IMG/VR virus record: IMGVR_UViG_3300016644_000039
Location: 1-50,539 of that record
Length of the DNA stretch: 50,539 nt
From: a virus
Taxonomy: Duplodnaviria; Caudoviricetes
Strand: one strand, 5' to 3'
The translations under genes were made by a program, and so were the position numbers. Shown piece by piece: positions 16,566-36,091 of this stretch. The number at the start of each line of letters is the position of its first letter. Position 1 is the first letter of the stretch. The notes beneath the pieces are model-generated. The model searched no databases. It saw nothing but the letters and a program-made list of their open reading frames with translations, and was not told the DNA's origin.

Positions 16566-16606
16566 CGCACGGACCAAATCGTTTGTGAACCTTGAAAGCA
16601 GTACCA

Positions 16607-16834
16607 GTGGATAACCAACAACTCTTTAACCTCGTAGTCAGCATCGCAGCGTTTCTCGCCGTGTTCGTCTTCAACTGGATCACACGCAAGATTCAAAGGC
16701 TCGAAGACGAGATGAAGCAGCTTCCGCACGACTACGTGCAGAAGGACGACTATCGCTCGGACGTCAAGGAGCTCAAGGACATGCTTCGGCAGCTCTTTGA
16801 CAAACTTGACGCCAAAGCAGACAAGACAGGCTAA
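16607..16834 (+). CDS. putative holin-like protein (one TM helix plus coiled coil)
   Basis: Hydrophobic N-terminus; YVQKDDY..LFDKLD; first gene of the envelope/lysis block. Confidence 0.5.
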   Translation: MDNQQLFNLVVSIAAFLAVFVFNWITRKIQRLEDEMKQLPHDYVQKDDYRSDVKELKDMLRQLFDKLDAKADKTG

Positions 16835-16837
16835 CAA

Positions 16838-17458
16838 GTGAAATGGCTGTTGCTCCTATTGTTCACCGGACCCGTGCTGGCGCAGAACACCGCCACCGTG
16901 GACAACCTGTCGACAAACCAACAGGGCAGCAACATCACCAACAGCTCGAACTCGAACAACACGAGCCAGAGCACGACGTACAACGGGAACGCGCCCGGGA
17001 GCACACCACCTCCGAGCGCGATTGCGCCGAGCTACATGGGCGGCGGCCAGGACTCGTGCCTGATCGGGCTCTCTGGGTCGGTGTCGTCCAGCGTGATCGG
17101 CATCGGCGGAGGAACGTACCGGCGCGACGAGCAGTGCGAGCTGCTCAAGCTCGCCAAGACATTGAACGATTTCGGGCTGAAGGTCGCTGCTGTGGCAACC
17201 CTCTGCCAGGACACCAGAGTCTTTCAAGCGATGGCCATGGCGGGCACTCCCTGTCCGTACCTGGGCGCGATTGGAAAACAAGCCACGATCTTGTGGCAGC
17301 AGTACCCGGAGATGAGGCCCGACTATGAACGCAAACCGCTCAAACCCATTTCGCTCGCCACTGGCGTTCGTGCTGATGATTCAGGCTCTCTGTCTGATCG
17401 TTATCGCCCCAGCAAACGCGCAAAGTCTAACGACAAGCCAGCAGACGGTAGTAAATGA
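16838..17458 (+). CDS. secreted Cys-containing protein of unknown function
   Basis: Sec signal MKWLLLLLFTGPVLA|Q; PPPSAIAP, four Cys, AGTPCP. Confidence 0.75.
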   Translation: MKWLLLLLFTGPVLAQNTATVDNLSTNQQGSNITNSSNSNNTSQSTTYNGNAPGSTPPPSAIAPSYMGGGQDSCLIGLSGSVSSSVIGIGGGTYRRDEQCELLKLAKTLNDFGLKVAAVATLCQDTRVFQAMAMAGTPCPYLGAIGKQATILWQQYPEMRPDYERKPLKPISLATGVRADDSGSLSDRYRPSKRAKSNDKPADGSK

Positions 17459-18149
17459 CCTGAGCGGCGCTTCCAAGACCATCAAGAGCCAGGTCATGTT
17501 GGGCCTGGGTCTGAGCAACGCGCTGTCGGTCTCGGCCAGCAACGGCACCATCGTCGACCCCAATGCCTATTCGCTCGCCATCATCACCGAGCAACAGCGC
17601 CAGGCGTACAACACGTCGCTGAACACCTTCCAGACGACGAGCTTCTACAACGCGCAGCAGTTCTTCAAGGACCAGGCGACGACGGCCATCAACCAGATGC
17701 AGCAGTCGATCAGCTTCCTGGCTTCCAACGCCGTGGAGCTGCAAAAGGCGGCGACCGTTCACCAGATGGTGTCTGGTGTCGGCGACTCGGTGCAGGCCAA
17801 GCAGGTGCAGACCGCCATTGCCGCGAGCGGGCTCAGCTCCGAGATTCGAGCCGACACCGTGGCGAACTACAACTACAGCCTCGCGTCCGTGAACAGCTAC
17901 GCCACCCAGGCGGCGGCGTTCTTTCGCGCGGCGGACAACCAGCAGCTCACCAGCACCGTCGACCTGCTCAAGACCAACTACGGCAAGGACCTGGCCTACG
18001 CCGGGGCGCACTTCGTGTATGGCGACGCCCGGATGCTGGTGGGTTGGGCTGACGGCTTCAGCATCTCCATGGGGCCGGTACTGGACGCGTACCAGCAGTC
18101 CTCGCAGAGCTTCTACCAGGCTAACAACCTGATGTTCGGAGGTCAGTGA
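17325..18149 (+). CDS. secreted helical protein of unknown function
   Basis: Signal peptide ending ANA|Q; Q/A/N-rich; overlaps the upstream gene by 134 nt. Confidence 0.7.
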   Translation: MNANRSNPFRSPLAFVLMIQALCLIVIAPANAQSLTTSQQTVVNDLSGASKTIKSQVMLGLGLSNALSVSASNGTIVDPNAYSLAIITEQQRQAYNTSLNTFQTTSFYNAQQFFKDQATTAINQMQQSISFLASNAVELQKAATVHQMVSGVGDSVQAKQVQTAIAASGLSSEIRADTVANYNYSLASVNSYATQAAAFFRAADNQQLTSTVDLLKTNYGKDLAYAGAHFVYGDARMLVGWADGFSISMGPVLDAYQQSSQSFYQANNLMFGGQ

Positions 18150-18697
18150 TGGCGGACGAGAACAAGCCCACCGACAAGGTCGACCTGGCGTCGACCGAAC
18201 TCAAGATCGGCGGAGTCAACCTCAAGGGCAGCTACATCGTCTGGTTCATCGCGTGCGTGAGCGCCGTGGGCGGCGGCATCTACGCGGCGGGCGGCGAGTG
18301 GGGCAAGTACCAGAAGCTGCAAGAGGCGGTCTCGAGCTGGAAGGCGCCCGACATGGAGCCGGTCGTCAAGGTGACCGAGAAGGCGGCCAACCTCGAGGAA
18401 GAGATCGTCAACATGTCCAAGGCGGTGGCTGAGCTACAGAACCTCGGCAGCAAGCTGACAGTCGATCTCAACGCCGTGCAACGCCTCATGGAAGCCAACG
18501 ATGTGAGCAAGCTGCAAGGCGCCATCTCTCAGTTGCGCACCGCCGTCGAGGGCGTGCAGGTGTTTACCCGCGACGTGCAGGCCCTGCGTGAGCAGATGGT
18601 CGGCGTTCAGAAAGACATGGCCACCCTGAAGAAAGACGTGGACGCCCAGTGGAACGCCATCGACTCGATTGGCGCCGGGGCGCTGAAAGGCAAGTGA
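18149..18697 (+). CDS. membrane-anchored coiled-coil protein
   Basis: GGAGG SD; TM segment YIVWFIACVSAVGGGIYAAG followed by long heptad repeats. Confidence 0.75.
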   Translation: MADENKPTDKVDLASTELKIGGVNLKGSYIVWFIACVSAVGGGIYAAGGEWGKYQKLQEAVSSWKAPDMEPVVKVTEKAANLEEEIVNMSKAVAELQNLGSKLTVDLNAVQRLMEANDVSKLQGAISQLRTAVEGVQVFTRDVQALREQMVGVQKDMATLKKDVDAQWNAIDSIGAGALKGK

Positions 18698-18915
18698 TGA
18701 AGTACCTGCTCCTAATCACTCTGGGTCTGCTGGCGGGCTGTAGCGACCACTACCGCTACCCATGTCAGAACCCGGACAACTTCGCAAAGCCGGAGTGCCA
18801 GAAGCCCAAATGCCTGTTCACGCAGATGTGCCCGGAATACCTCGTAGCCCCGATCCTGGAGAAGCAGATCAATGGAAACCAACAACCAGCCTCAGAAGCA
18901 GCCCCTAACCGCTGA
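18697..18915 (+). CDS. small Cys-rich lipoprotein (72 aa)
   Basis: MKYLLLITLGLLAG|C lipobox; four further Cys; TGATG coupling. Confidence 0.8.
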   Translation: MKYLLLITLGLLAGCSDHYRYPCQNPDNFAKPECQKPKCLFTQMCPEYLVAPILEKQINGNQQPASEAAPNR

Positions 18916-19363
18916 CGACATCGAAGTCCGAATCTGGGGGTTCGTGGTCGTCGTGGTCACCCTGATCCTGTGCTTCATCGTCGTGTCCCTGCTGTACTCG
19001 GTGACGTTCGTCACCCAGCCGATCAAGTCGATGGCGCCCATCGACCAGGCCTACACGAAGATGCTCAACGACATCGTGCTGCTGATCGTGGGTGGCATTG
19101 GTGGCGTGATGTCCAAGCGGGCGACGGCAGCCGTGGCCAAGGCCATTGCCCCGGAGCCTCCCAAGCCCGCTGCACCGGGAGCTGAACCCCCAAAGCCCCC
19201 GGCCCATCCGGTAATGCCTGACTGGAACTGGATGGGCTATCAGAACCCGGACCTCGACGAGAGCTGGGTGCCGCCGCCTCCGCCGACGACCCCGGCCGAT
19301 CACCTGGACCCCTCGCGTGAGGAGATCGCCATGGAGCGCGCCCTTGCAAGGACCGAGTCATGA
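18872..19363 (+). CDS. two-TM membrane protein with Pro-rich tail
   Basis: Two hydrophobic segments; Pro-rich C-terminus. Confidence 0.75.
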   Translation: METNNQPQKQPLTADDIEVRIWGFVVVVVTLILCFIVVSLLYSVTFVTQPIKSMAPIDQAYTKMLNDIVLLIVGGIGGVMSKRATAAVAKAIAPEPPKPAAPGAEPPKPPAHPVMPDWNWMGYQNPDLDESWVPPPPPTTPADHLDPSREEIAMERALARTES

Positions 19364-19827
19364 ACAAGTACCTGATTGCTGGCGTCGTCGCGGTGCTCAC
19401 CGTGTTTGGCATCTACCGCTACGGCTTCCACAAGGGCTGGGGCGAGCGCGACGCCGAGATGCAGGCCGTCATCGCTCAGAAGAACGAGGAGGCCCGCCAG
19501 ACCGAGCAGAAGATGCTCGAGCTCACCAACACCACCGCAACACAACTGAAGGAGGCCAACGATGCCCTCGACCAAAAGTCTTCTGCTCTTGACCGTGCTA
19601 TCCGCGCTGGCCGGGTGCGCCTCCCCGCCCCGAGTTGCGTACAAACCTCCGCAGGTACCCCCGCTCCCGCCGGAGATAGCGCAGAAGCGCCCAGCGAATC
19701 TGAGCGACAGACTCTTGCAGCTATTGCAGCCATCGTCGCCGACGGCGACCGGGCCATCAACCAGCTCAACGCCTGCATCGACGCCTACAACCAAGTGAGG
19801 GAGCAGCTTAATGGCAGTAACCACTGA
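19360..19827 (+). CDS. i-spanin (Rz-like)
   Basis: N-terminal TM, coiled coil, GRVRL, QLNACIDAY. Confidence 0.85.
   Translation: MNKYLIAGVVAVLTVFGIYRYGFHKGWGERDAEMQAVIAQKNEEARQTEQKMLELTNTTATQLKEANDALDQKSSALDRAIRAGRVRLPAPSCVQTSAGTPAPAGDSAEAPSESERQTLAAIAAIVADGDRAINQLNACIDAYNQVREQLNGSNH
19562..19798 (+). CDS. o-spanin (Rz1-like) embedded in the +1 frame
   Basis: AAGGAGG SD; LAG|C lipobox; Pro-rich; fully nested in Rz. Confidence 0.8.
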   Translation: MPSTKSLLLLTVLSALAGCASPPRVAYKPPQVPPLPPEIAQKRPANLSDRLLQLLQPSSPTATGPSTSSTPASTPTTK

Positions 19828-20410
19828 ACAGCTCAAGGAGCTGCACATCGACCCCCAGTGGGTGGACGCCCTGAACGCGACGTTCGAGCGCTTCTACATC
19901 AACAGCAAGGTGCAGCAGGCGGCCTTCATCGGCCAGTGCGGGCATGAGTGCGGCAACTTCAAGGTGCTCGAGGAGAACCTGAACTACCGCGCCGAGACGC
20001 TGATGCGCCTGTGGCCCAAGCGTTTCCCGACGCTGGATGTTGCCAACCAGTACGCCCGCAACCCCAAGAAAATCGCCAACATGGTCTACGCCAACCGCAT
20101 GGGCAACCGTGACGAGGCGTCCGGCGACGGCTACCGGTTCCGGGGTCGAGGCTGCATCCAGCTAACCGGGCACTCGAACTACTTCCATGCCGGCAAGGCG
20201 TTGGGCGTTGACTTCGTGAAAGAGCCCGACCTGGTGGCGACACCGATGTACGCCGCGCTCACCGCCGGCTGGTTCTGGTCCACCCACGACTGCAACCGCC
20301 TGGCCGAAGTTCAGGACTGGAAGGGCCTGACCAAGAAAATCAACGGAGGCCACATTGGTCTGGATGACCGGATCAAGCATACGCAGCACGCGTTGGCCGT
20401 TCTGGGCTAA
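19811..20410 (+). CDS. endolysin, glycoside hydrolase family 19
   Basis: AFIGQCGHEC, EENLNY, RGRGCIQLTG..NY, INGG motifs. Confidence 0.92.
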   Translation: MAVTTEQLKELHIDPQWVDALNATFERFYINSKVQQAAFIGQCGHECGNFKVLEENLNYRAETLMRLWPKRFPTLDVANQYARNPKKIANMVYANRMGNRDEASGDGYRFRGRGCIQLTGHSNYFHAGKALGVDFVKEPDLVATPMYAALTAGWFWSTHDCNRLAEVQDWKGLTKKINGGHIGLDDRIKHTQHALAVLG

Positions 20411-26280: not shown

Positions 26281-26520
26281 ATGTCCAATGTCGAAAAGCT
26301 GCTCGCAAAGGGCGCACAGATCGTCGGTGGTGACCTGATTCTTCGTCACCAGGTGGTGGGCATGTTCCGCTACGACGACTTCATCCTGACCCCTGAAGGC
26401 GAGGCTGAGCTTGAGATCACCGACGTGGTCGTCAAAGAGGAAAAGGCTGCCAAGGCCCCTCGCGCCAAGAAGGTCGACGAGTCCGCAGCCGCTACGGATG
26501 ACGTGACCATCGAGGTCTGA
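26281..26520 (+). CDS. small hypothetical protein
   Basis: GGAG SD; ORF track. Confidence 0.7.
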   Translation: MSNVEKLLAKGAQIVGGDLILRHQVVGMFRYDDFILTPEGEAELEITDVVVKEEKAAKAPRAKKVDESAAATDDVTIEV

Positions 26521-26936
26521 TGAAGCGGATCATCTCCGACCCGGCTCGCGTTTGGGCGTACGTCCACACGAAAGCCGGAGTTCCAGCCTCAGCCAACATG
26601 AAGGGGTTGGGGTTGGAACAGGACGGAGAGTTGATCGCTGGCGTGGTCTACGAGGGCTACACCGGCCATAACATCTGGATGCACGTCGCGGCGGAGCCCG
26701 GCGCCAGATGGATGACCCGTGAGTTTCTTCGGTACTGCTTCTACTACCCATTCGTCGAGTGCGGAGTTGACCGCGTGAGTGGTTGGGTAGAGGACAGCAA
26801 CGAGGCTGCGAAGAGGTTTGACGAGCACTTGGGCTTTCGTGAGGAGGCCAGGCTCAAGGGGGCCGCCAGAGATGGCGGTGATGTGATTCTGTATGTGATG
26901 TGGCGGAAGGACTGCCGTTATGTTGATCCCGAGTAA
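26520..26936 (+). CDS. GNAT-fold protein (P22 gp14-like position)
   Basis: N..A..FDEHLGFREEARL GNAT motif; precedes the ejection genes. Confidence 0.75.
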   Translation: MKRIISDPARVWAYVHTKAGVPASANMKGLGLEQDGELIAGVVYEGYTGHNIWMHVAAEPGARWMTREFLRYCFYYPFVECGVDRVSGWVEDSNEAAKRFDEHLGFREEARLKGAARDGGDVILYVMWRKDCRYVDPE

Positions 26937-29323: not shown

Positions 29324-32300
29324 ATGTTGCCAACCATCAAAGAGCTGCGCGCCGCTGCTGGCGGGCTGGAGAACCTAACAGACGAAGAGATCATCTCCGC
29401 CACGTACCCCGCCTACCAGCAGTACTACGGCTCTGTTGATGAGTTCGCAAAGTCGGTCGGCTACGGGGGCGCAGGGCGCGGCATGGCCAGCTCGCGCATC
29501 TCTGCCGGCATCGACAACTACCAAGCAGGCCTGCTGGGCTTGGGCGGCGCCGCCTCCCGTGCTGTCGGGCTCGATGGAGCCGCCCAGTGGTTTGACCAGC
29601 GCCGCGATGCCAACGAGCAGGCGGCGGCCTACGCTACCCAGCGGGCCCGTGACCTGGGCGCGGTCGACGACTGGCGCGAAGTCGATGGTGTCGGCTCCGG
29701 CCTGAACTACCTGGGCGGCCTGGCTGCCCAATCGCTCCCCTACCTGGGCGAAGCTGTCGTGGGCGGTCTTGCCGCTCGAGGCTTAGCCACCGGCGCCCGT
29801 GCTGCCCTGCGCGGGGCTACCACTGCCGAAGAGGCTGCTGCCGCAGGCCGACGCCTGGGGGCTATCCAGACTGGCGGCGCTGTTGCTGCCTCTTACCCCT
29901 CTGCCGTCGGCGACATCCTGGCCAACCAGCGCGAAGCAGGTGGTGAGGACCTGGGCTCCGCCCTGCTGGGCGGCGTGCCCTACGCTGCGCTCAATGCGTT
30001 TGGCGTGGAAGGGCTGGCTGCTCGAGGGCTGCGTCCGTTTGCTGCGGGTGAGGGCCGTCTTGCCCGCATGGCCACAGGGGCTGCATCCACCGCCATCGGT
30101 GAGGGCCTGGGCGAAACCGGGCAGGAGCTGGCCAACCAGTACTTCGGCCACATGGCCGTGGACCCCAACGAGACGCTGTTCAACGATGAAGCCAATCGCC
30201 GCTACCTCGATTCCTTTGTGGGCGGTGCTGCTCTTGGCGGACTGTTTGGTGGCGCTGGCGGTTTCCGACGTCCCCGCACTGTTGATGAGGGCCAGTTTGA
30301 CCTGACGGGCCGGGACCAGCCGCAAGGCGACTCCCTGCAACTGGGATTCAGTCCGCTGGCGGGCACCCCGGTCGTCTTCCCCGACGGCACTGTGGCGCTG
30401 AACGGCGAACAAGAGCTCGAGGCCCGATACGGCGTCGGAAGCCCCGCAGCGACGATCCCCGACATGGGGGAAACCCCTGTTGTTTCCACGCAACAGGAAG
30501 GGAAAACACCTACGACTCCGGGCATTTCGCAGTTCGACGAGGTCGACCAAGGCCTGACGGACATGGGCATCGCCATGGCCAGCGGCAAGAAGACCCGCGA
30601 GAAGCAGCGGGCGTTCTACCAGGACGCCGTAGCCACGGGCATCCCGCTCGACAGCGACCTGCTGACGCCCTACTGGACCGCCGTGTCCCAGAACCGCTTT
30701 GGTGACCGCACCAAGGTGCTGCTCCAGAACGCCATCGTCCAAGCCAAGAAGGAGGCTGCCAATGTCAGCCAGCCAAGCGCACCTGCCGGACAACCTGTTG
30801 GAAGCGGTGATGGACGGAGCGCTGCTCCTGTCGGAAGCATGGGCAATCCAGGATCAGTTCCTACTGGCCAACAGCCAGTGGGTGGAAATGCCGGAAATCC
30901 TCAACCCGCAGGTGGGCAAGTTGCTCCTGTGGCAAACGCCGGGGTTCAACGACCTGCCGCTGTAGCGCCGGTCGGCGAGAACACGTCCATCCTGGCAGGC
31001 GCCAACGAGCCGGCTTCGCCCGCCAATCTCGACTACGTTGAGGACCAGAACGCGCTGGAGATCGCCCGCCTGACCGGGCAGGGCGGCGTTGCTGAGGCGC
31101 TGGAGCAAGACGCGACCGGCCAGCGCGCTGACCGCGAGACTGCGACCGCCGAGGACGCCGAGCGCATCCTGGGCAAGTTCTTCGAGGAGTCGCCCACTGC
31201 CGAGCGCGACCGCCAGATTTTCGATGCGTGGCTCACCGCCACCCGCCCGGCTGGTCGAGGCGTCAAGGGCAAGATTAACGCCGCCATCGGCAAGGACTTC
31301 GATGTCGGCACCAAGCGCGTCGAGCAGATCACCAACACCAAGAAGCTCGTCGAGACTGGCAAGGCACTGGGCTACTCGGAGGAGCAGGTCTACGAGGCTT
31401 TCGGCCTGACCCCGCCCAACACCAAGGCGGTGGACCCCAACGCGGCGGTCAACCCAGAAGTCGCGGCGCTGCGCCGCGCAATCGAAGACTTGGGCGCTCG
31501 CGCCAAGGCCGCCAAGGGTGCTGAAAAGATTGAGCTCGAGGCGCAGCGCAAAGAGCTCCAGGGTGTCCTGTCTGGCATGGCCGAGAGCCGTTCCAACGAG
31601 GAACGTGGCGTGGTTGCCCGCGCCCTGGCCAACGCAGGGTTCACTATCGAAGAAGGTGACACCACCGGCTGGAGCCTGGACGACAACCGTGAGTGGCAGC
31701 GCGAAAGCAGCTCGGGCAACCAGGAAGGCGACGTCCTTCTGCGCTTTGGCAAGCAGATCGACGATCTGCGCTCGGCCATCGAGACGCTTGAGTCCCAAGG
31801 CTTGGGCAGCGCCGCCGCTGAACTGGAAGAACTGTCGACCAAGGTGGCCACCGAGCTGGAAGCTGCCAAGGCTGCGCTGCAAGCCACCAAGGTCCCGGCA
31901 GCGCCCAAGCGCGAAGTCTCCGCTGACCTGGCCGCCGCCAAGCAGAAGTTCAAGGACGTTGGTCGTGACGTGACCAAGATGGAGCCGGAGGAGCTGCGCA
32001 TGCTGCGCGGCGAGGCCGAGCGCTTCAAGAACAAAGAGTTGCTGGCCAAGATCGACGCCCAGTTGGGCGCTGCGCCTGTCGCTCCCGCTGTAGAAGCCGA
32101 GGCTGCACCTACCGCCGAAGCCCAGACCCAAGAACGCGAGCGCTTCCCCTACCCGCCGACTCTGCCTGGCGCCCCGGCCTACGTCGAGCCTGCTCAGCGC
32201 GCGGTCGTGGACTTCATGAACGGGGACCTGACCCGCGAGCAACTGCGCGAGCGCTTCGCCGAGCTGGGGATGACCGTTGCCCAGCAGCGTTCGGTGACCA

Positions 32301-35300
32301 ACCCCATCGAGTGGTTCCCTGCGGACTTCGACGCCGTCAAGGAGCTGATTGACGCCAAGAAGGGGGCCCCCAAACAAGACAGCGGCCAGACGCTGTGGGA
32401 GTCCTTGCGCGCGCAGACTCCTGACCTGGTCACTTACGAGGAGCTGACGGGCAACGAGCGTGGCTACTTGACCGAGCTGGCCGACCGTACCAACGGCAAG
32501 CCGACCATCAAGAACGAGCTGGGCCTGCAAGAGCTGATGGGCCGCACGACCGACGCACCTCCGTTCGTTCGCCAAAGCCGCAGTCGCTACCGCAGCGCCG
32601 ACCAGTTCGGCAACCAGTTCGAGTCGGTGGAGGCGTCCCTCGAGGAGCTGACCGGCCACTACCCGAGTGTGAACGTCGCCATCACGCGCCTGCGTGGCAT
32701 GGGTGTGGGCAACACGCTCGACGCCGTTCAATCCTGGCAGGTCACGCTCGACCCTGTGAGCTGGGATGCGATCTACACCGTCATGGACGGCAAGCCCACC
32801 GTCGTGCTCAGCCACGACGCAATGAAAATTCGTGAGATCGGCATTCTCGCCGTCATGCACGAGGTGGCCCACGCCGCCGACGGGGTGCAGGCAGGCGGCA
32901 AGTTCTCCGCCGACCGCGAGATGAAAGTCCAACTGGTCAACGGCATGCCGATGGCCATGCGTCCTGGCACCGCCATGGACGAAATCCTCACCCACTTCGA
33001 GGACTACGACTCGGGCCTGTCGCAGCTACTCCAGTACCCGCTGGATATGAGCGACCCCGAGAACCGTAAAATGTCCGCACGGGAGCTTCGTGAGGAAGTC
33101 TTCGCCCAGGTCTGGGCGTTCTCGAACACCTTCGGCGGCATGGAGTGGTTGCAGGACAACCTGCCGACCACCGCCGCATTCCTGGAGCGCGTCAATGCAG
33201 AAATCAAGCAAACCGACTACGGCCAGGCGGGTGCCCAACAAGGTGCTCAGCCAGGACAAGTTCAAGATGGGGCCGCTGGCCAAGGAAGCGTTCAGCGCGC
33301 AAGCCGGAGCAAAGCTGTCCCCGCCAGTGCCAAGGAAGAAGTCGGGCTCCTGACGAAGACGCTGCGCACGGCTGCCGGCGCTGCGCTCAACAAGGTCGTC
33401 TTCAGCGAGGACCTCTTCAAGCGGGCCTCCGACATGGGCCTGACTGCGGCCATGGACATGGACCGCATCTACCGCGAACGTGCGGCGCTCACCGGCAACA
33501 TCGAGCGGGAAGTCACCCGCATCGAGAACCTGTACAACCGCATCCCCACGGCGTTCAAGGGCACCGGCCCGCGCAGCGCCAACCAGTTCCTCTACGACTC
33601 GACGCGTGAGGCCAAGTGGGGCTTCGCGCCCAAGTGGCGTGGGCAGGCCGCATCCAAGGTGCAGGTCGACGCCGGGATGGCCCAGCGCTTCAAGGCGCTG
33701 CCCAAGGAAGCCCAGGAGTGGGTGCGCGCCGTGCTGGAGCACGGTGACAAGATGTTGGCTCTCAAGAAGCAGACGCTGATCGAGTCGACTAACTCCGAGT
33801 ACGACGCTCTGATCGCGGACGCCCGCGCACGCGGCGAGACCAACAAGGCCGACCGACTGGAGAACGACAAGCAGGCCAGCCTGCGCCAGTTCCAGCGCCT
33901 GTTTGCCACCAGCGAGTTCAACCCGTACGCCCCGATGCGCCGCTTCGGCGACTTCGTGGTGGTCGCCAAATCCAAGGAGTACATGGCCGCGCAGACGCAG
34001 GCCGAGCGTGCCAAGCTGGAGAAGGACCCCGACCACTACCACGTCTCGTTTGCCGAGAGCCGCGCCTCCGCGCTGGAGCTCGAGCGCCAGCTCACCCAGC
34101 AGGGTGCCTTTGCGTCCGTGACGACCCGGGCCAAGGAGGACGCACGCGGGGACATGTATGGCGGCCTGATGGACGCCTTCAACAAGCTGCGCGGCAACAT
34201 CGAGTCCGAGCTGGGCAACGCCACCGACCCCGAGGAGATTGCCTCGCTGCGCGCCGCGCGCGAGACCGTGGTCGAGTTGTACCTCCAGTCACTGGCCGAG
34301 AACTCCGCCCGCAAGGCCGAGATGCGCCGCCGTGCCGTGGCCGGCGAGATCGACATGCTGCGTTCGTTCAGCACCCAGGGCCGGGCCGACGCCCACTTCC
34401 TGGCCAGCGCCAAGTACAACCCGCAGGCGCAGGACGCTGTTGTAAAAATGCGACAACAGGCCAAGGAGGGAGGCAAGCAGCTCGAGAAGTCGGATGCCTT
34501 CAAGGAAATCCTGGCCCGCCACACGCAGTCCATGAAGTACGAGAACGGTGGCTGGTTTGACGTGGCCAACCGTGCATCTCGCGTGACGTCGCTGTGGATG
34601 CTGGCCACGAGCCCGATGTACTACCTCCAGAACTTGACCCAGCCGTTCGTGCTGTCGCTGCCGTTCATGACAGGCAAGCATGACTACAGCCAGGCGGCTG
34701 GGCAGCTCATGCGCTCGTACTTCCAACTGGGCGCGCTGCTCAAGAGCGCGAAGCTGGGCGAGGGCTTCGACTTCACCAAGGTCTCCACCGACAAGAACGA
34801 ACAGGACATGGTCCTCAAGCTCGTCGACCGGGGTCGTATCGACATCGGCATGGACACCGAGCTTGGCAAGGTGAAGCTCGAGGGCGACAGCACCGCCAGC
34901 AAGCTGACCAACCGCGCCGACCAGTTCCTGCGCTCGCTCTCCCAGAAGGTGGAGGCCATCAACCGCGTGTCCACCGCGCTGGCTGCGTATCGCTTGGAGC
35001 GCAAGGGCGGGGCGTCCCACGAAGCTGCTCTGGAGTACGCCGACCAGGTGATCGCCCAGACCCATGGCGACTACACCCGCATCAACGCTCCGCGTGCGTT
35101 CAACACGCCGGCCGGCAAGGTGGCCTTGCAATTCCGCAAGTTCCAGTTGATCCAGCTCACGCTGCTGACCAAGCTGGTCTACAACACCTTCAAGGGCGCA
35201 TCGCCCGAGGAGCGCGCCGCCGCCCGCAAAATGCTGGCGTTCACTTTGGGTCACACGGGGATGTTGGCCGGTGTCGTGGGCATGCCCGGCTTTGCGGCTG

Positions 35301-36091
35301 CGGCCTTCATCATCAACAAGCTGGCCGACGCCTTCGGCGACGATGACGAGCCGTACAACCTCGAGAACGAGCTCCGCAAGATGCTGGGTGACGGGGACAT
35401 GGCTCGCGCCATCATGCGCGGCGCTCCCACCCTGGCCGGCACCGACTTGTCGGGCAAGCTCGGCATGGGCAACGCCCTGTCCATCCTGCCGTACACGGAC
35501 TTCGAGGCAAGCCGCGAGGGCTTCAACGCCATCGCCACCGGCCTGACGCTGGGCGCCACGGGCGGCCTGGGCGCCAAGGTCTTCGAAGCTCTGGGCAACA
35601 TCAAGGACGGCGACTACTACCGTGGCCTGATGGGCTTGTCCCCGTCGCTGCTGGCTGGCGGCATCAAGGCTTTCGTGGAAGCCAACCGTGGCGAGACCAA
35701 CCGCAAGGGCGACGTGCTGGTGAGCGCAGACGAGATCAGCAACTGGGAGAGCTTCGCCAAGCTGATCGGCTGGCCGACCAGTGCCCAGAGCGAGCGCCGC
35801 TTCGACCGTCAGGTGGCCTACGACAACAAGGAGGCCTTCGAGAACAAGGCGTCCAAGCTCAAGAACGAGTACTCCCGCGCCGTGCGTGAGAACGATGCTG
35901 ATGGGCGCCGCGCCGCCATCGAGAAGTGGCAGCGCCTCCAGACAAGCCGCCGCGAAGCAGGCTTCCAGGCCCAGCCGCTGTCAGCTCTGATGAAGGCCCC
36001 GCAGGAGCAGGCCAAGCGCGAGCGCAACACCTCGGGCGGCGTGCAGTTCGACAAGCGCAACCGCCAGTTCGTGATGGAACAGACCCAGTAA
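29324..36091 (+). CDS. giant ejection / large polyvalent protein (HTH-like segment, HExxH metallopeptidase, PLxRFG domain)
   Basis: G/A-rich hydrophobic N-terminus; HEVAH at 32858-32872; PMRRFG at 33932-33949; ALQFRKF C-terminal region. Confidence 0.8.
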   Translation: MLPTIKELRAAAGGLENLTDEEIISATYPAYQQYYGSVDEFAKSVGYGGAGRGMASSRISAGIDNYQAGLLGLGGAASRAVGLDGAAQWFDQRRDANEQAAAYATQRARDLGAVDDWREVDGVGSGLNYLGGLAAQSLPYLGEAVVGGLAARGLATGARAALRGATTAEEAAAAGRRLGAIQTGGAVAASYPSAVGDILANQREAGGEDLGSALLGGVPYAALNAFGVEGLAARGLRPFAAGEGRLARMATGAASTAIGEGLGETGQELANQYFGHMAVDPNETLFNDEANRRYLDSFVGGAALGGLFGGAGGFRRPRTVDEGQFDLTGRDQPQGDSLQLGFSPLAGTPVVFPDGTVALNGEQELEARYGVGSPAATIPDMGETPVVSTQQEGKTPTTPGISQFDEVDQGLTDMGIAMASGKKTREKQRAFYQDAVATGIPLDSDLLTPYWTAVSQNRFGDRTKVLLQNAIVQAKKEAANVSQPSAPAGQPVGSGDGRSAAPVGSMGNPGSVPTGQQPVGGNAGNPQPAGGQVAPVANAGVQRPAAVAPVGENTSILAGANEPASPANLDYVEDQNALEIARLTGQGGVAEALEQDATGQRADRETATAEDAERILGKFFEESPTAERDRQIFDAWLTATRPAGRGVKGKINAAIGKDFDVGTKRVEQITNTKKLVETGKALGYSEEQVYEAFGLTPPNTKAVDPNAAVNPEVAALRRAIEDLGARAKAAKGAEKIELEAQRKELQGVLSGMAESRSNEERGVVARALANAGFTIEEGDTTGWSLDDNREWQRESSSGNQEGDVLLRFGKQIDDLRSAIETLESQGLGSAAAELEELSTKVATELEAAKAALQATKVPAAPKREVSADLAAAKQKFKDVGRDVTKMEPEELRMLRGEAERFKNKELLAKIDAQLGAAPVAPAVEAEAAPTAEAQTQERERFPYPPTLPGAPAYVEPAQRAVVDFMNGDLTREQLRERFAELGMTVAQQRSVTNPIEWFPADFDAVKELIDAKKGAPKQDSGQTLWESLRAQTPDLVTYEELTGNERGYLTELADRTNGKPTIKNELGLQELMGRTTDAPPFVRQSRSRYRSADQFGNQFESVEASLEELTGHYPSVNVAITRLRGMGVGNTLDAVQSWQVTLDPVSWDAIYTVMDGKPTVVLSHDAMKIREIGILAVMHEVAHAADGVQAGGKFSADREMKVQLVNGMPMAMRPGTAMDEILTHFEDYDSGLSQLLQYPLDMSDPENRKMSARELREEVFAQVWAFSNTFGGMEWLQDNLPTTAAFLERVNAEIKQTDYGQAGAQQGAQPGQVQDGAAGQGSVQRASRSKAVPASAKEEVGLLTKTLRTAAGAALNKVVFSEDLFKRASDMGLTAAMDMDRIYRERAALTGNIEREVTRIENLYNRIPTAFKGTGPRSANQFLYDSTREAKWGFAPKWRGQAASKVQVDAGMAQRFKALPKEAQEWVRAVLEHGDKMLALKKQTLIESTNSEYDALIADARARGETNKADRLENDKQASLRQFQRLFATSEFNPYAPMRRFGDFVVVAKSKEYMAAQTQAERAKLEKDPDHYHVSFAESRASALELERQLTQQGAFASVTTRAKEDARGDMYGGLMDAFNKLRGNIESELGNATDPEEIASLRAARETVVELYLQSLAENSARKAEMRRRAVAGEIDMLRSFSTQGRADAHFLASAKYNPQAQDAVVKMRQQAKEGGKQLEKSDAFKEILARHTQSMKYENGGWFDVANRASRVTSLWMLATSPMYYLQNLTQPFVLSLPFMTGKHDYSQAAGQLMRSYFQLGALLKSAKLGEGFDFTKVSTDKNEQDMVLKLVDRGRIDIGMDTELGKVKLEGDSTASKLTNRADQFLRSLSQKVEAINRVSTALAAYRLERKGGASHEAALEYADQVIAQTHGDYTRINAPRAFNTPAGKVALQFRKFQLIQLTLLTKLVYNTFKGASPEERAAARKMLAFTLGHTGMLAGVVGMPGFAAAAFIINKLADAFGDDDEPYNLENELRKMLGDGDMARAIMRGAPTLAGTDLSGKLGMGNALSILPYTDFEASREGFNAIATGLTLGATGGLGAKVFEALGNIKDGDYYRGLMGLSPSLLAGGIKAFVEANRGETNRKGDVLVSADEISNWESFAKLIGWPTSAQSERRFDRQVAYDNKEAFENKASKLKNEYSRAVRENDADGRRAAIEKWQRLQTSRREAGFQAQPLSALMKAPQEQAKRERNTSGGVQFDKRNRQFVMEQTQ
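30762..30965 (+). CDS. nested +1-frame small protein (67 aa) inside the polyvalent gene
   Basis: AAGGAGG at 30749-30755, 6 nt before ATG; codon bias shifts to this frame. Confidence 0.65.
   Translation: MSASQAHLPDNLLEAVMDGALLLSEAWAIQDQFLLANSQWVEMPEILNPQVGKLLLWQTPGFNDLPL
33195..33353 (+). CDS. second nested +1-frame small basic protein (52 aa)
   Basis: GGAG 7 nt before ATG; GC3 bias shifts to +1 across the linker. Confidence 0.45.
   Translation: MQKSSKPTTARRVPNKVLSQDKFKMGPLAKEAFSAQAGAKLSPPVPRKKSGS

Follow-up and report, generated by a model that had tools for sequence, protein, structure and literature searches.

The window analysed here is the whole of a linear IMG/VR virus record (IMGVR_UViG_3300016644_000039, 50,539 nucleotides; Duplodnaviria, Caudoviricetes), which is 87% complete and carries terminase, capsid, PolA and integrase genes. 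On its late strand, with the tail-fibre region on one side and virion genes on the other, lie five coupled open reading frames (ORFs) that we call A to E. The first-pass annotation of this DNA took them for a single trans-envelope machine inside the lysis cassette. We find instead that A-B-C (16838-18697) are a strict trio, inherited apart from D-E (18697-19363), which are a separate unit belonging with the Rz, Rz1 and endolysin genes. The five genes are as follows.

16838..17458, + strand: gene A, 206 amino acids (aa), GTG start; phrog_20531
17325..18149, + strand: gene B (class B1), 274 aa, predicted exported; alternative starts at 17370 and 17376
18146 (or 18149)..18697, + strand: gene C, N-terminal transmembrane segment (TM) and long coiled coil
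18697..18915, + strand: gene D, 72 aa lipoprotein with lipobox LLAG-C
18872..19363, + strand: gene E, two predicted TMs and a Pro-rich tail; phrog_25359; holin candidate

The overlap of B with A is at most 134 nucleotides (nt), and D is missing from the program-made ORF list owing to the first-start rule of that list. The fraction of G and C at third codon positions is 0.73-0.89 in each of the five frames. The ratio of non-synonymous to synonymous substitution rates (dN/dS), computed pairwise against five close relatives with saturated dS values dropped, is below 1 for all of them: 0.07-0.09 for A, 0.59-0.66 for B, 0.14-0.32 for C, 0.03-0.13 for D and 0.05-0.07 for E. Contigs of related strains cover the region and their variation is in-frame. 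A contig joint that skips 17206-18745 probably comes from another organism and was left out of use.

Most of what the first-pass annotation had described gene by gene was borne out. This concerns the five coupled genes in front of Rz, Rz1 and endolysin, all present as ORFs and with dN/dS below 1, the four cysteines (74, 100, 123 and 139) and the Gly-rich stretch of A, the membrane-anchored coiled coil of C (one N-terminal hydrophobic segment and coiled-coil-type library matches), and the Cys-rich lipoprotein D, which has four conserved cysteines beyond the lipidated one. The signals attributed to A and B were also found: a home-made heuristic, not SignalP, called signal-peptide-like N-termini in 89 of 94 A proteins and 79 of 93 B proteins, against 10 of 152 control ORFs. 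The description of E as a Pro-rich protein with two TMs stood in part, since the Pro-rich tail and one strong TM (residues 14-51) are present and the second, weaker hydrophobic stretch lies below the hydropathy cut-off of 1.5. In line with the claim of conserved, undescribed envelope-targeted genes beyond spanins and endolysin, searches of A to E against Pfam and NCBIfam gave no family above the curated cut-offs, and the PHROG matches are to families of unknown function only.

Linkage of A, B and C and their separation from D and E

Relatives of A form 4099 clusters at 90% identity and 2552 at 50%, and an estimated 6,200 or so IMG/VR stretches match A patterns. In GenBank, A occurs in 11 of 50,697 phage records, six of them from pelagiphages and two from roseophages, and eight of these 11 regions were inspected. 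As a control, phrog_20531 was matched in none of 14 control genomes. The viral A loci that we compared number 98 (18, eight of them from GenBank, plus 80 from an IMG/VR pattern scan). They are not independent, since only 42 A cores stay distinct below 90% identity, and 22 of the loci end inside A, B or C. All 76 loci with room have a C-family gene 3' of A, mostly as the second gene after it. A reverse scan from C, made with a 13-sequence alignment from trios and thus biased to that subfamily, examined 80 loci and found A and B2 (the commonest class of B, see below) upstream in 32 of the 32 with 4 kb of upstream sequence, and the B2 C-terminus upstream of C in 67 of the 68 with 600 nt. Among metagenome loci the linkage of A, B and C holds in 24 of 26. 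In the remaining two (L503:6638-7039 and L519:6578-6979), C is inverted and converges on B2.

The linkage of D and E is of another kind. Using the best 80 hits per scan, which lean to close relatives, we found E at 79 of 80 D-anchored loci, and Rz plus endolysin at all 70 that have 1.6 kb downstream, while A was present at 11 of the 62 with at least 2.5 kb upstream. Further loci, anchored on E, gave D in 79 of 79, Rz plus endolysin in 72 of 72 with room, and A in 2 of 60. Seen from the other side, the 72 A loci with room after C have D in 8 cases and E in 10. The gene-neighbourhood check proposed with the one-machine idea thus holds for A-B-C, which are nearly always together, and fails for the five genes as a set. 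The idea that all five build one machine can draw on the coupled genes of the window, L001, L005 and L006, and on the fact that both B1- and B3-type trios occur 5' of D-E. However, it is largely refuted by the co-occurrence counts, and the occurrence of D-E in a predicted actinophage (see below) also speaks against it, which leaves it highly improbable.

The trio is found in phages with podo-, T4-like and other virion types. This bears on the reading of A, B and C as virion structural proteins, for which their location between tail-fibre and virion genes could be cited. We reject this reading as very unlikely, because the N-termini are of export type and C has a TM anchor, unlike proteins assembled in the cytoplasm without an export signal, because the same trio spans these virion types, and because no match to a structural PHROG was found.

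Several cultured or sequenced phages carry the same family and gene order as A-B-C in genes that are so far hypothetical, namely PHROG 20531 and HTVC023P gp45-46-48, HTVC202P gp24-26 and Mosig_00202-00200. CRP-207 gp75-73 and CRP-810 gp53-51 share, in addition, the B1 class of the window. The GenBank counterparts of the trio genes are unannotated or mislabelled (OmpA family, lysozyme, TonB), and the trio components match no characterised family or fold. We found no published work on A-B-C or D-E, and no mention of phrog_20531 or QGZ17674, supplements and subscription journals possibly excepted. Gene calling contributes its own gaps: GenBank calls skip B in MW202675 and A in MW202481, and the overlap of B with A has led databases to start B (window:17421-18149; P0121) from a Met inside the gene, giving a 217-aa product that lacks the predicted signal peptide. 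In MW202675 a small, weak and shortened A paralog (L384:886-1101, E 0.0013) lies 5' of A. The trio crosses phage families, and its carriers infect some of the aquatic bacteria that are most abundant. D-E, a unit apart, is a common candidate for a holin with its regulator among freshwater phages.

Predicted anatomy of the trio and of the D-E unit

Protein A starts with a predicted signal peptide (residues 1-15), an Asn/Thr/Ser tract (16-55) and a PPSAxAP linker (57-66). These are followed by an amphipathic beta-hairpin (75-95), a helical domain with C123-C139 and a trio-specific helix (143-153); 60-110 residues continue C-terminal of the two-strand hairpin. The tract is 73% Asn, Thr and Ser (32%, 25% and 16%) and very variable in length, from about 40 residues in the window to several hundred in some homologs. 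It has no curlin Pfam match, a weak negative given that a true phage curlin-associated protein (L363:3872-4561) has no Pfam match either. The hairpin is closed by C74-C100, with hydrophobic residues at positions 76, 78, 82, 87 and 89 and Gly, Ser, Ala or Gln at 77, 79, 81, 83, 88, 90 and 92. Charged residues and gaps are nearly absent from positions 75-92 in 236 non-redundant homologs. Hydrophobic and small residues alternate in this way in membrane hairpins that form a closed barrel only together with partners. The AlphaFold2 (AF2) model of A has two strands at the hairpin and then a confident helical domain. Both C123-C139 and the hairpin register (83-88, mean z 2.45) emerge from a simple covariation analysis of 471 sequences (effective number, Meff, 178). 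The best antiparallel register of the PPSAxAP linker to strand 1 is i+j=143 (mean z 1.0 over 13 pairs).

Fold searches with A returned only uncharacterised viral homologs in BFVD, and VIA Z of at most 2.5. A sequence search of the PDB gave one chance match, and the ESM Atlas gave hypothetical viral clusters for A and none for B. Missing fold matches of this kind do not establish that A and B have new folds. Longer forms of A (28 proteins, 363-456 aa) have no Pfam domain. Homologs also occur outside viruses: of 42 A loci in GTDB, 28 resemble phage contigs binned into metagenome-assembled genomes (MAGs) and 14 are chromosomal. The latter are alphaproteobacterial, mostly from Hyphomonadaceae, Caulobacteraceae and Micropepsaceae, and lack B and C, and each of the six inspected in full stands as a single gene among housekeeping genes and encodes long Asn/Gly tracts. 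A [IVL]GxxA motif past the last cysteine is present in 97 of 98 trio A proteins and in none of the 14 chromosomal ones, and because of this restriction the trio-specific helix is likely to be the site that binds B or C.

Trimeric autotransporters of the YadA type have a signal peptide, a variable low-complexity N-terminus and a C-terminal anchor with small inward residues, a layout shared by A and its stand-alone bacterial homologs. In place of the terminal four-strand anchor, however, A has a single hairpin of two strands with a disulfide-bonded helical domain behind it, and neither Pfam nor the fold searches (VIA Z again at most 2.5) relate the two. The chromosomal homologs (L128-L141, from MAGs) are, in their own right, candidate unrecognised bacterial surface proteins. 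A two-gene variant is found in the Achromobacter phages phiAxp-2 and ART, which have an A homolog (E 4e-12 for phiAxp-2) that lacks the trio helix, and have neither B nor C. In front of this homolog lies a gene for a Gly/Ser/Ala-rich protein whose N-terminus resembles a signal peptide (52% identity between the two phages), and the two genes together (L550:44598-45710, - strand, and L552:1323-2399) may encode a fibre subunit with its anchor.

In the B slot of 76 trio loci we found B2 in 61 and B1 in 11, and four proteins were left unassigned by hidden Markov models (HMMs), three of which group by BLAST with pelagiphage B2 proteins. B1 is helical, B2 has variable domains, an acidic stalk and a conserved C-terminus, and B3, seen at D-anchored loci, has Cys/Trp repeats and a Pro/Ser stalk. 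Judged from these sequences, B is exchanged among at least three unrelated, predicted exported proteins, and no homology was detected between B1 and the B2 C-terminal domain (hhalign probability 0.4%). The B1 of the window has 37 homologs and is the class shared with CRP-207 and CRP-810. Its dN is 0.47-0.58, about five times that of A. In its AF2 model (predicted local distance difference test, pLDDT, 90.5), B1 is for the most part a bundle of helices, with a small beta sheet at the C-terminal end, for which Foldseek gave no match at E of at most 0.001 and VIA only generic helical ones with Z below 8. As for C, members of the family usually end in NPL, and an HMM of 66 NPL-ending proteins matches the C of the window (E 2e-16), which ends in GAGALKGK, unlike its hypothetical counterparts in the phages named above.

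C resembles the inner-membrane spanin of lambda Rz/Rz1-type two-component systems in its type II inner-membrane topology, its periplasmic coiled coil and its frequent location in lysis regions. Yet the lipoprotein gene that spanins have within or right after the i-spanin gene is lacking, D following C in only 8 of 72 loci, and the trio has an extra swappable exported gene and a real Rz/Rz1 pair alongside. Trio and spanins coexist in the window and in L049, L053, L064, L082 and L127. We therefore reject, as improbable, the replacement of spanins by the trio, given the separate Rz/Rz1 and the fact that A and B, the constant partners of C, are not lipoproteins.

In the D-E unit, Asp at position +3 of D is nearly invariant. 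It is mostly part of a Glu-Asp pair (54 of 99 homologs), the window D having Ser-Asp. Glu-Asp is an inner-membrane retention signal of Escherichia coli lipoproteins. E has a conserved external loop (VTQP..) ahead of its Pro-rich tail and fits the layout of a class II holin, with two predicted TMs, the second one weak, and a gene adjacent to those of endolysin and spanins. Homologs of D and E (E 1e-16 and 8e-22) occur in DSL-LC01, a predicted actinophage for which iPHoP, HostG and WhiB genes indicate an actinobacterial host (PMC10611076). Since this predicted host would lack an outer membrane, D-E would act at the cytoplasmic membrane. By analogy, the simplest reading is that E is likely a holin and D its lipoprotein regulator. 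The T4 holin T with its antiholin RI, and phiKZ gp142/gp143 (PMC12894885), likewise pair a small extra gene of the lysis cassette with a membrane protein. Unlike these, D is a lipoprotein with four conserved cysteines, E combines two predicted TMs with a short loop, and no homology was detected.

Curli cassettes and the possible role of the trio

The closest functional precedent for the trio is the curli, or type VIII secretion system, cassette (csgF-csgG-curlin-FecR) that pelagiphages and Melnitz encode (PMC7029224, PMC9599517 and PMC9004378). Both are accessory multigene envelope cassettes that cross phage families and have an outer-membrane component and exported partners, those of the trio being predicted. 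However, we found no relation in sequence or fold between the trio and CsgG, CsgF or curlin, family libraries gave no match of A to E to CsgG or CsgF, and the trio has three genes that include an inner-membrane coiled coil and an A that is not a lipoprotein. In the records tested, the two cassettes were found apart: Mosig has the trio and no CsgG, HTVC008M has CsgG and no trio, and the 11 A-positive and 10 CsgG-positive GenBank records do not overlap. In one case they occupy the same place. The T4-like L127 is 72-75% identical in DNA to L363 and L352 in a stretch that comprises a membrane gene and the two spanin genes, and 3' of the spanins L127 has three small genes and the trio, whereas L363 and L352 have small TM genes, csgF, csgG and curlin-type genes. 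This observation is only suggestive of an exchange of trio and curli in one slot.

With rather less than even confidence, we favour the explanation that the trio is a late surface-display device and that D-E are a holin with its lipoprotein regulator. A and B would be exported by Sec. A would oligomerise through its hairpin in the outer membrane, with residues 76, 78, 82, 87 and 89 facing the lipid and the Gly, Ser and Gln residues facing inward. The PPSAxAP linker, antiparallel to strand 1, would carry the Asn/Thr tract to the tip of the hairpin, away from the helical domain, in the manner of an autotransporter. C would tether A from the inner membrane through a putative trans-envelope contact, and the trio-specific helix of A may bind the tip of C or the C-terminus of B. 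The swappable B would then be held at or near the surface of the infected cell late in infection, where it could touch an external partner (new host cells, particles or grazers), making progeny likelier to find a host or to survive. D, on the outer face of the cytoplasmic membrane, would bind the external loop of E and set or delay the timing of lysis, as RI does with T in T4.

If a variable protein is indeed shown on infected cells, models of viral spread, of aggregation and of the grazing of infected cells would change. A further-reaching version, which we hold doubtful, is that family A is an unrecognised self-anchoring outer-membrane class, in which an oligomeric barrel with two strands per subunit threads its own Asn/Thr stalk outward, and to which thousands of aquatic phages have added a C tether and an exchangeable B adhesin, so that dying cells glue to new hosts. 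If true, it would be a second and commoner solution to the problem addressed by phage curli. Display of a variable protein would also make the 'sibling capture' idea testable in cultured pairs, with HTVC023P carrying the trio and its sister HTVC027P lacking it, and with CRP-207 and CRP-810 carrying the B type of the window.

A number of points weigh against the display reading. The hairpin of A is modelled with low confidence (pLDDT about 47-50), and the linker register is weak (z about 1), picked post hoc and drawn from an Meff of 178. Bulky, disulfide-rich B2 and B3 proteins would hardly fit through a small hairpin barrel, and B may stay periplasmic until lysis. No domain of adhesin type is seen in the B1 of the window, and Pfam matched none of the 38 other B-slot proteins, which leaves architecture as the basis of the label 'adhesin'. 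E matches no holin family in Pfam, NCBIfam or PHROG, only the unknown-function phrog_25359, and the host of DSL-LC01 is predicted, not cultured. On the side of curli, the swap is known from one trio genome (L127, a contig binned in a MAG). A search of 48 trio records for CsgG (PF03783), in which HTVC008M served as positive control, found none. Of the 48, 11 are at least 90% complete and 37 are not counted as such (eight of these are GenBank records with no completeness figure). Conversely, A was found in 0 of 46 CsgG-bearing contigs, which are short fragments, one of them near complete, and give little power. Finally, cultures infected with Melnitz did not clump despite its curli pore genes (PMC9004378).

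The lysis genes that are near neighbours of the trio at 12 of 34 sampled loci would equally fit a periplasmic lysis accessory, in which C-A would form an extra membrane bridge and B a scaffold or spacer that stabilises the envelope during virion assembly, or aids release after peptidoglycan removal, beside the spanins. The late operon of the window, the i-spanin-like topology of C, the easier placement of folded, disulfide-rich B proteins in the periplasm and the proposal that curli pores time lysis (PMC9004378) go in the same direction. However, full spanin pairs coexist with the trio, the other 22 sampled loci have no lysis-annotated neighbour, some trios adjoin primase, gp32 or terminase genes, and sister pelagiphages differ in A, which HTVC023P (L014) has and HTVC027P (L301) lacks. 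The fast change and swapping of B point, in addition, to an external partner. We thus consider a lysis accessory unlikely, though worth keeping in view.

The pore-like hairpin of A, the variability of B and the slot shared with the CsgG pore, itself proposed to serve in uptake and in defence against superinfection (PMC9599517, PMC7029224), would also suit a role in excluding competitors or importing solutes, with A as a gated outer-membrane channel or B masking a receptor against superinfection. This is improbable in our view, as the trio of the window sits in a late operon and not in an independent moron, and the conserved linker seems to lie against the inward-facing side of the hairpin. There is likewise a small chance that the trio shapes post-lysis vesicles or membrane-wrapped progeny, A and C pinning the membranes and an outward B targeting vesicles or virion clusters to new cells. 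The late position, the anchors in two membranes and the variable outward partner are compatible with this, but the fold search with B gave no fusogen-like fold. A pore-forming secreted toxin is not favoured, since in trio phages A always comes with an inner-membrane-anchored partner.

Neighbouring genes and minor observations

The genes that flank the two modules in the window are listed below.

16592..16834, + strand: gene with a single TM and a coiled coil, in the core of neither module; phrog_462, E 1e-9
19360..19827, + strand: Rz-like i-spanin; phrog_1327, E 8e-12
19562..19798, + strand: Rz1-like o-spanin lipoprotein, nested in the Rz-like gene; phrog_3198, E 1e-5
19811..20410, + strand: GH19 endolysin; PF00182 above cut-off; phrog_181, E 1e-78

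The first of these had been called holin-like in the first-pass annotation. That label is unconfirmed, because the sole library match is to phrog_462, a 'lipoprotein' family, and the gene is found at only a minority of D/E loci. A further undescribed family of the lysis region is a widespread phrog_32327-like gene, with an N-terminal amphipathic helix and a C-terminal TM, which lies 5' of D-E in many of the loci L142-L300 and also 3' of many trios (L057, L066, L083, L095 and L116). Elsewhere in the window, 29324-36091 encodes a product of 2255 aa whose C-terminal part is DarB-like (phrog_10089) and which is probably an internal virion protein that is injected, and an acyltransferase-like gene (26520-26936, phrog_4470) lies amid the virion genes.

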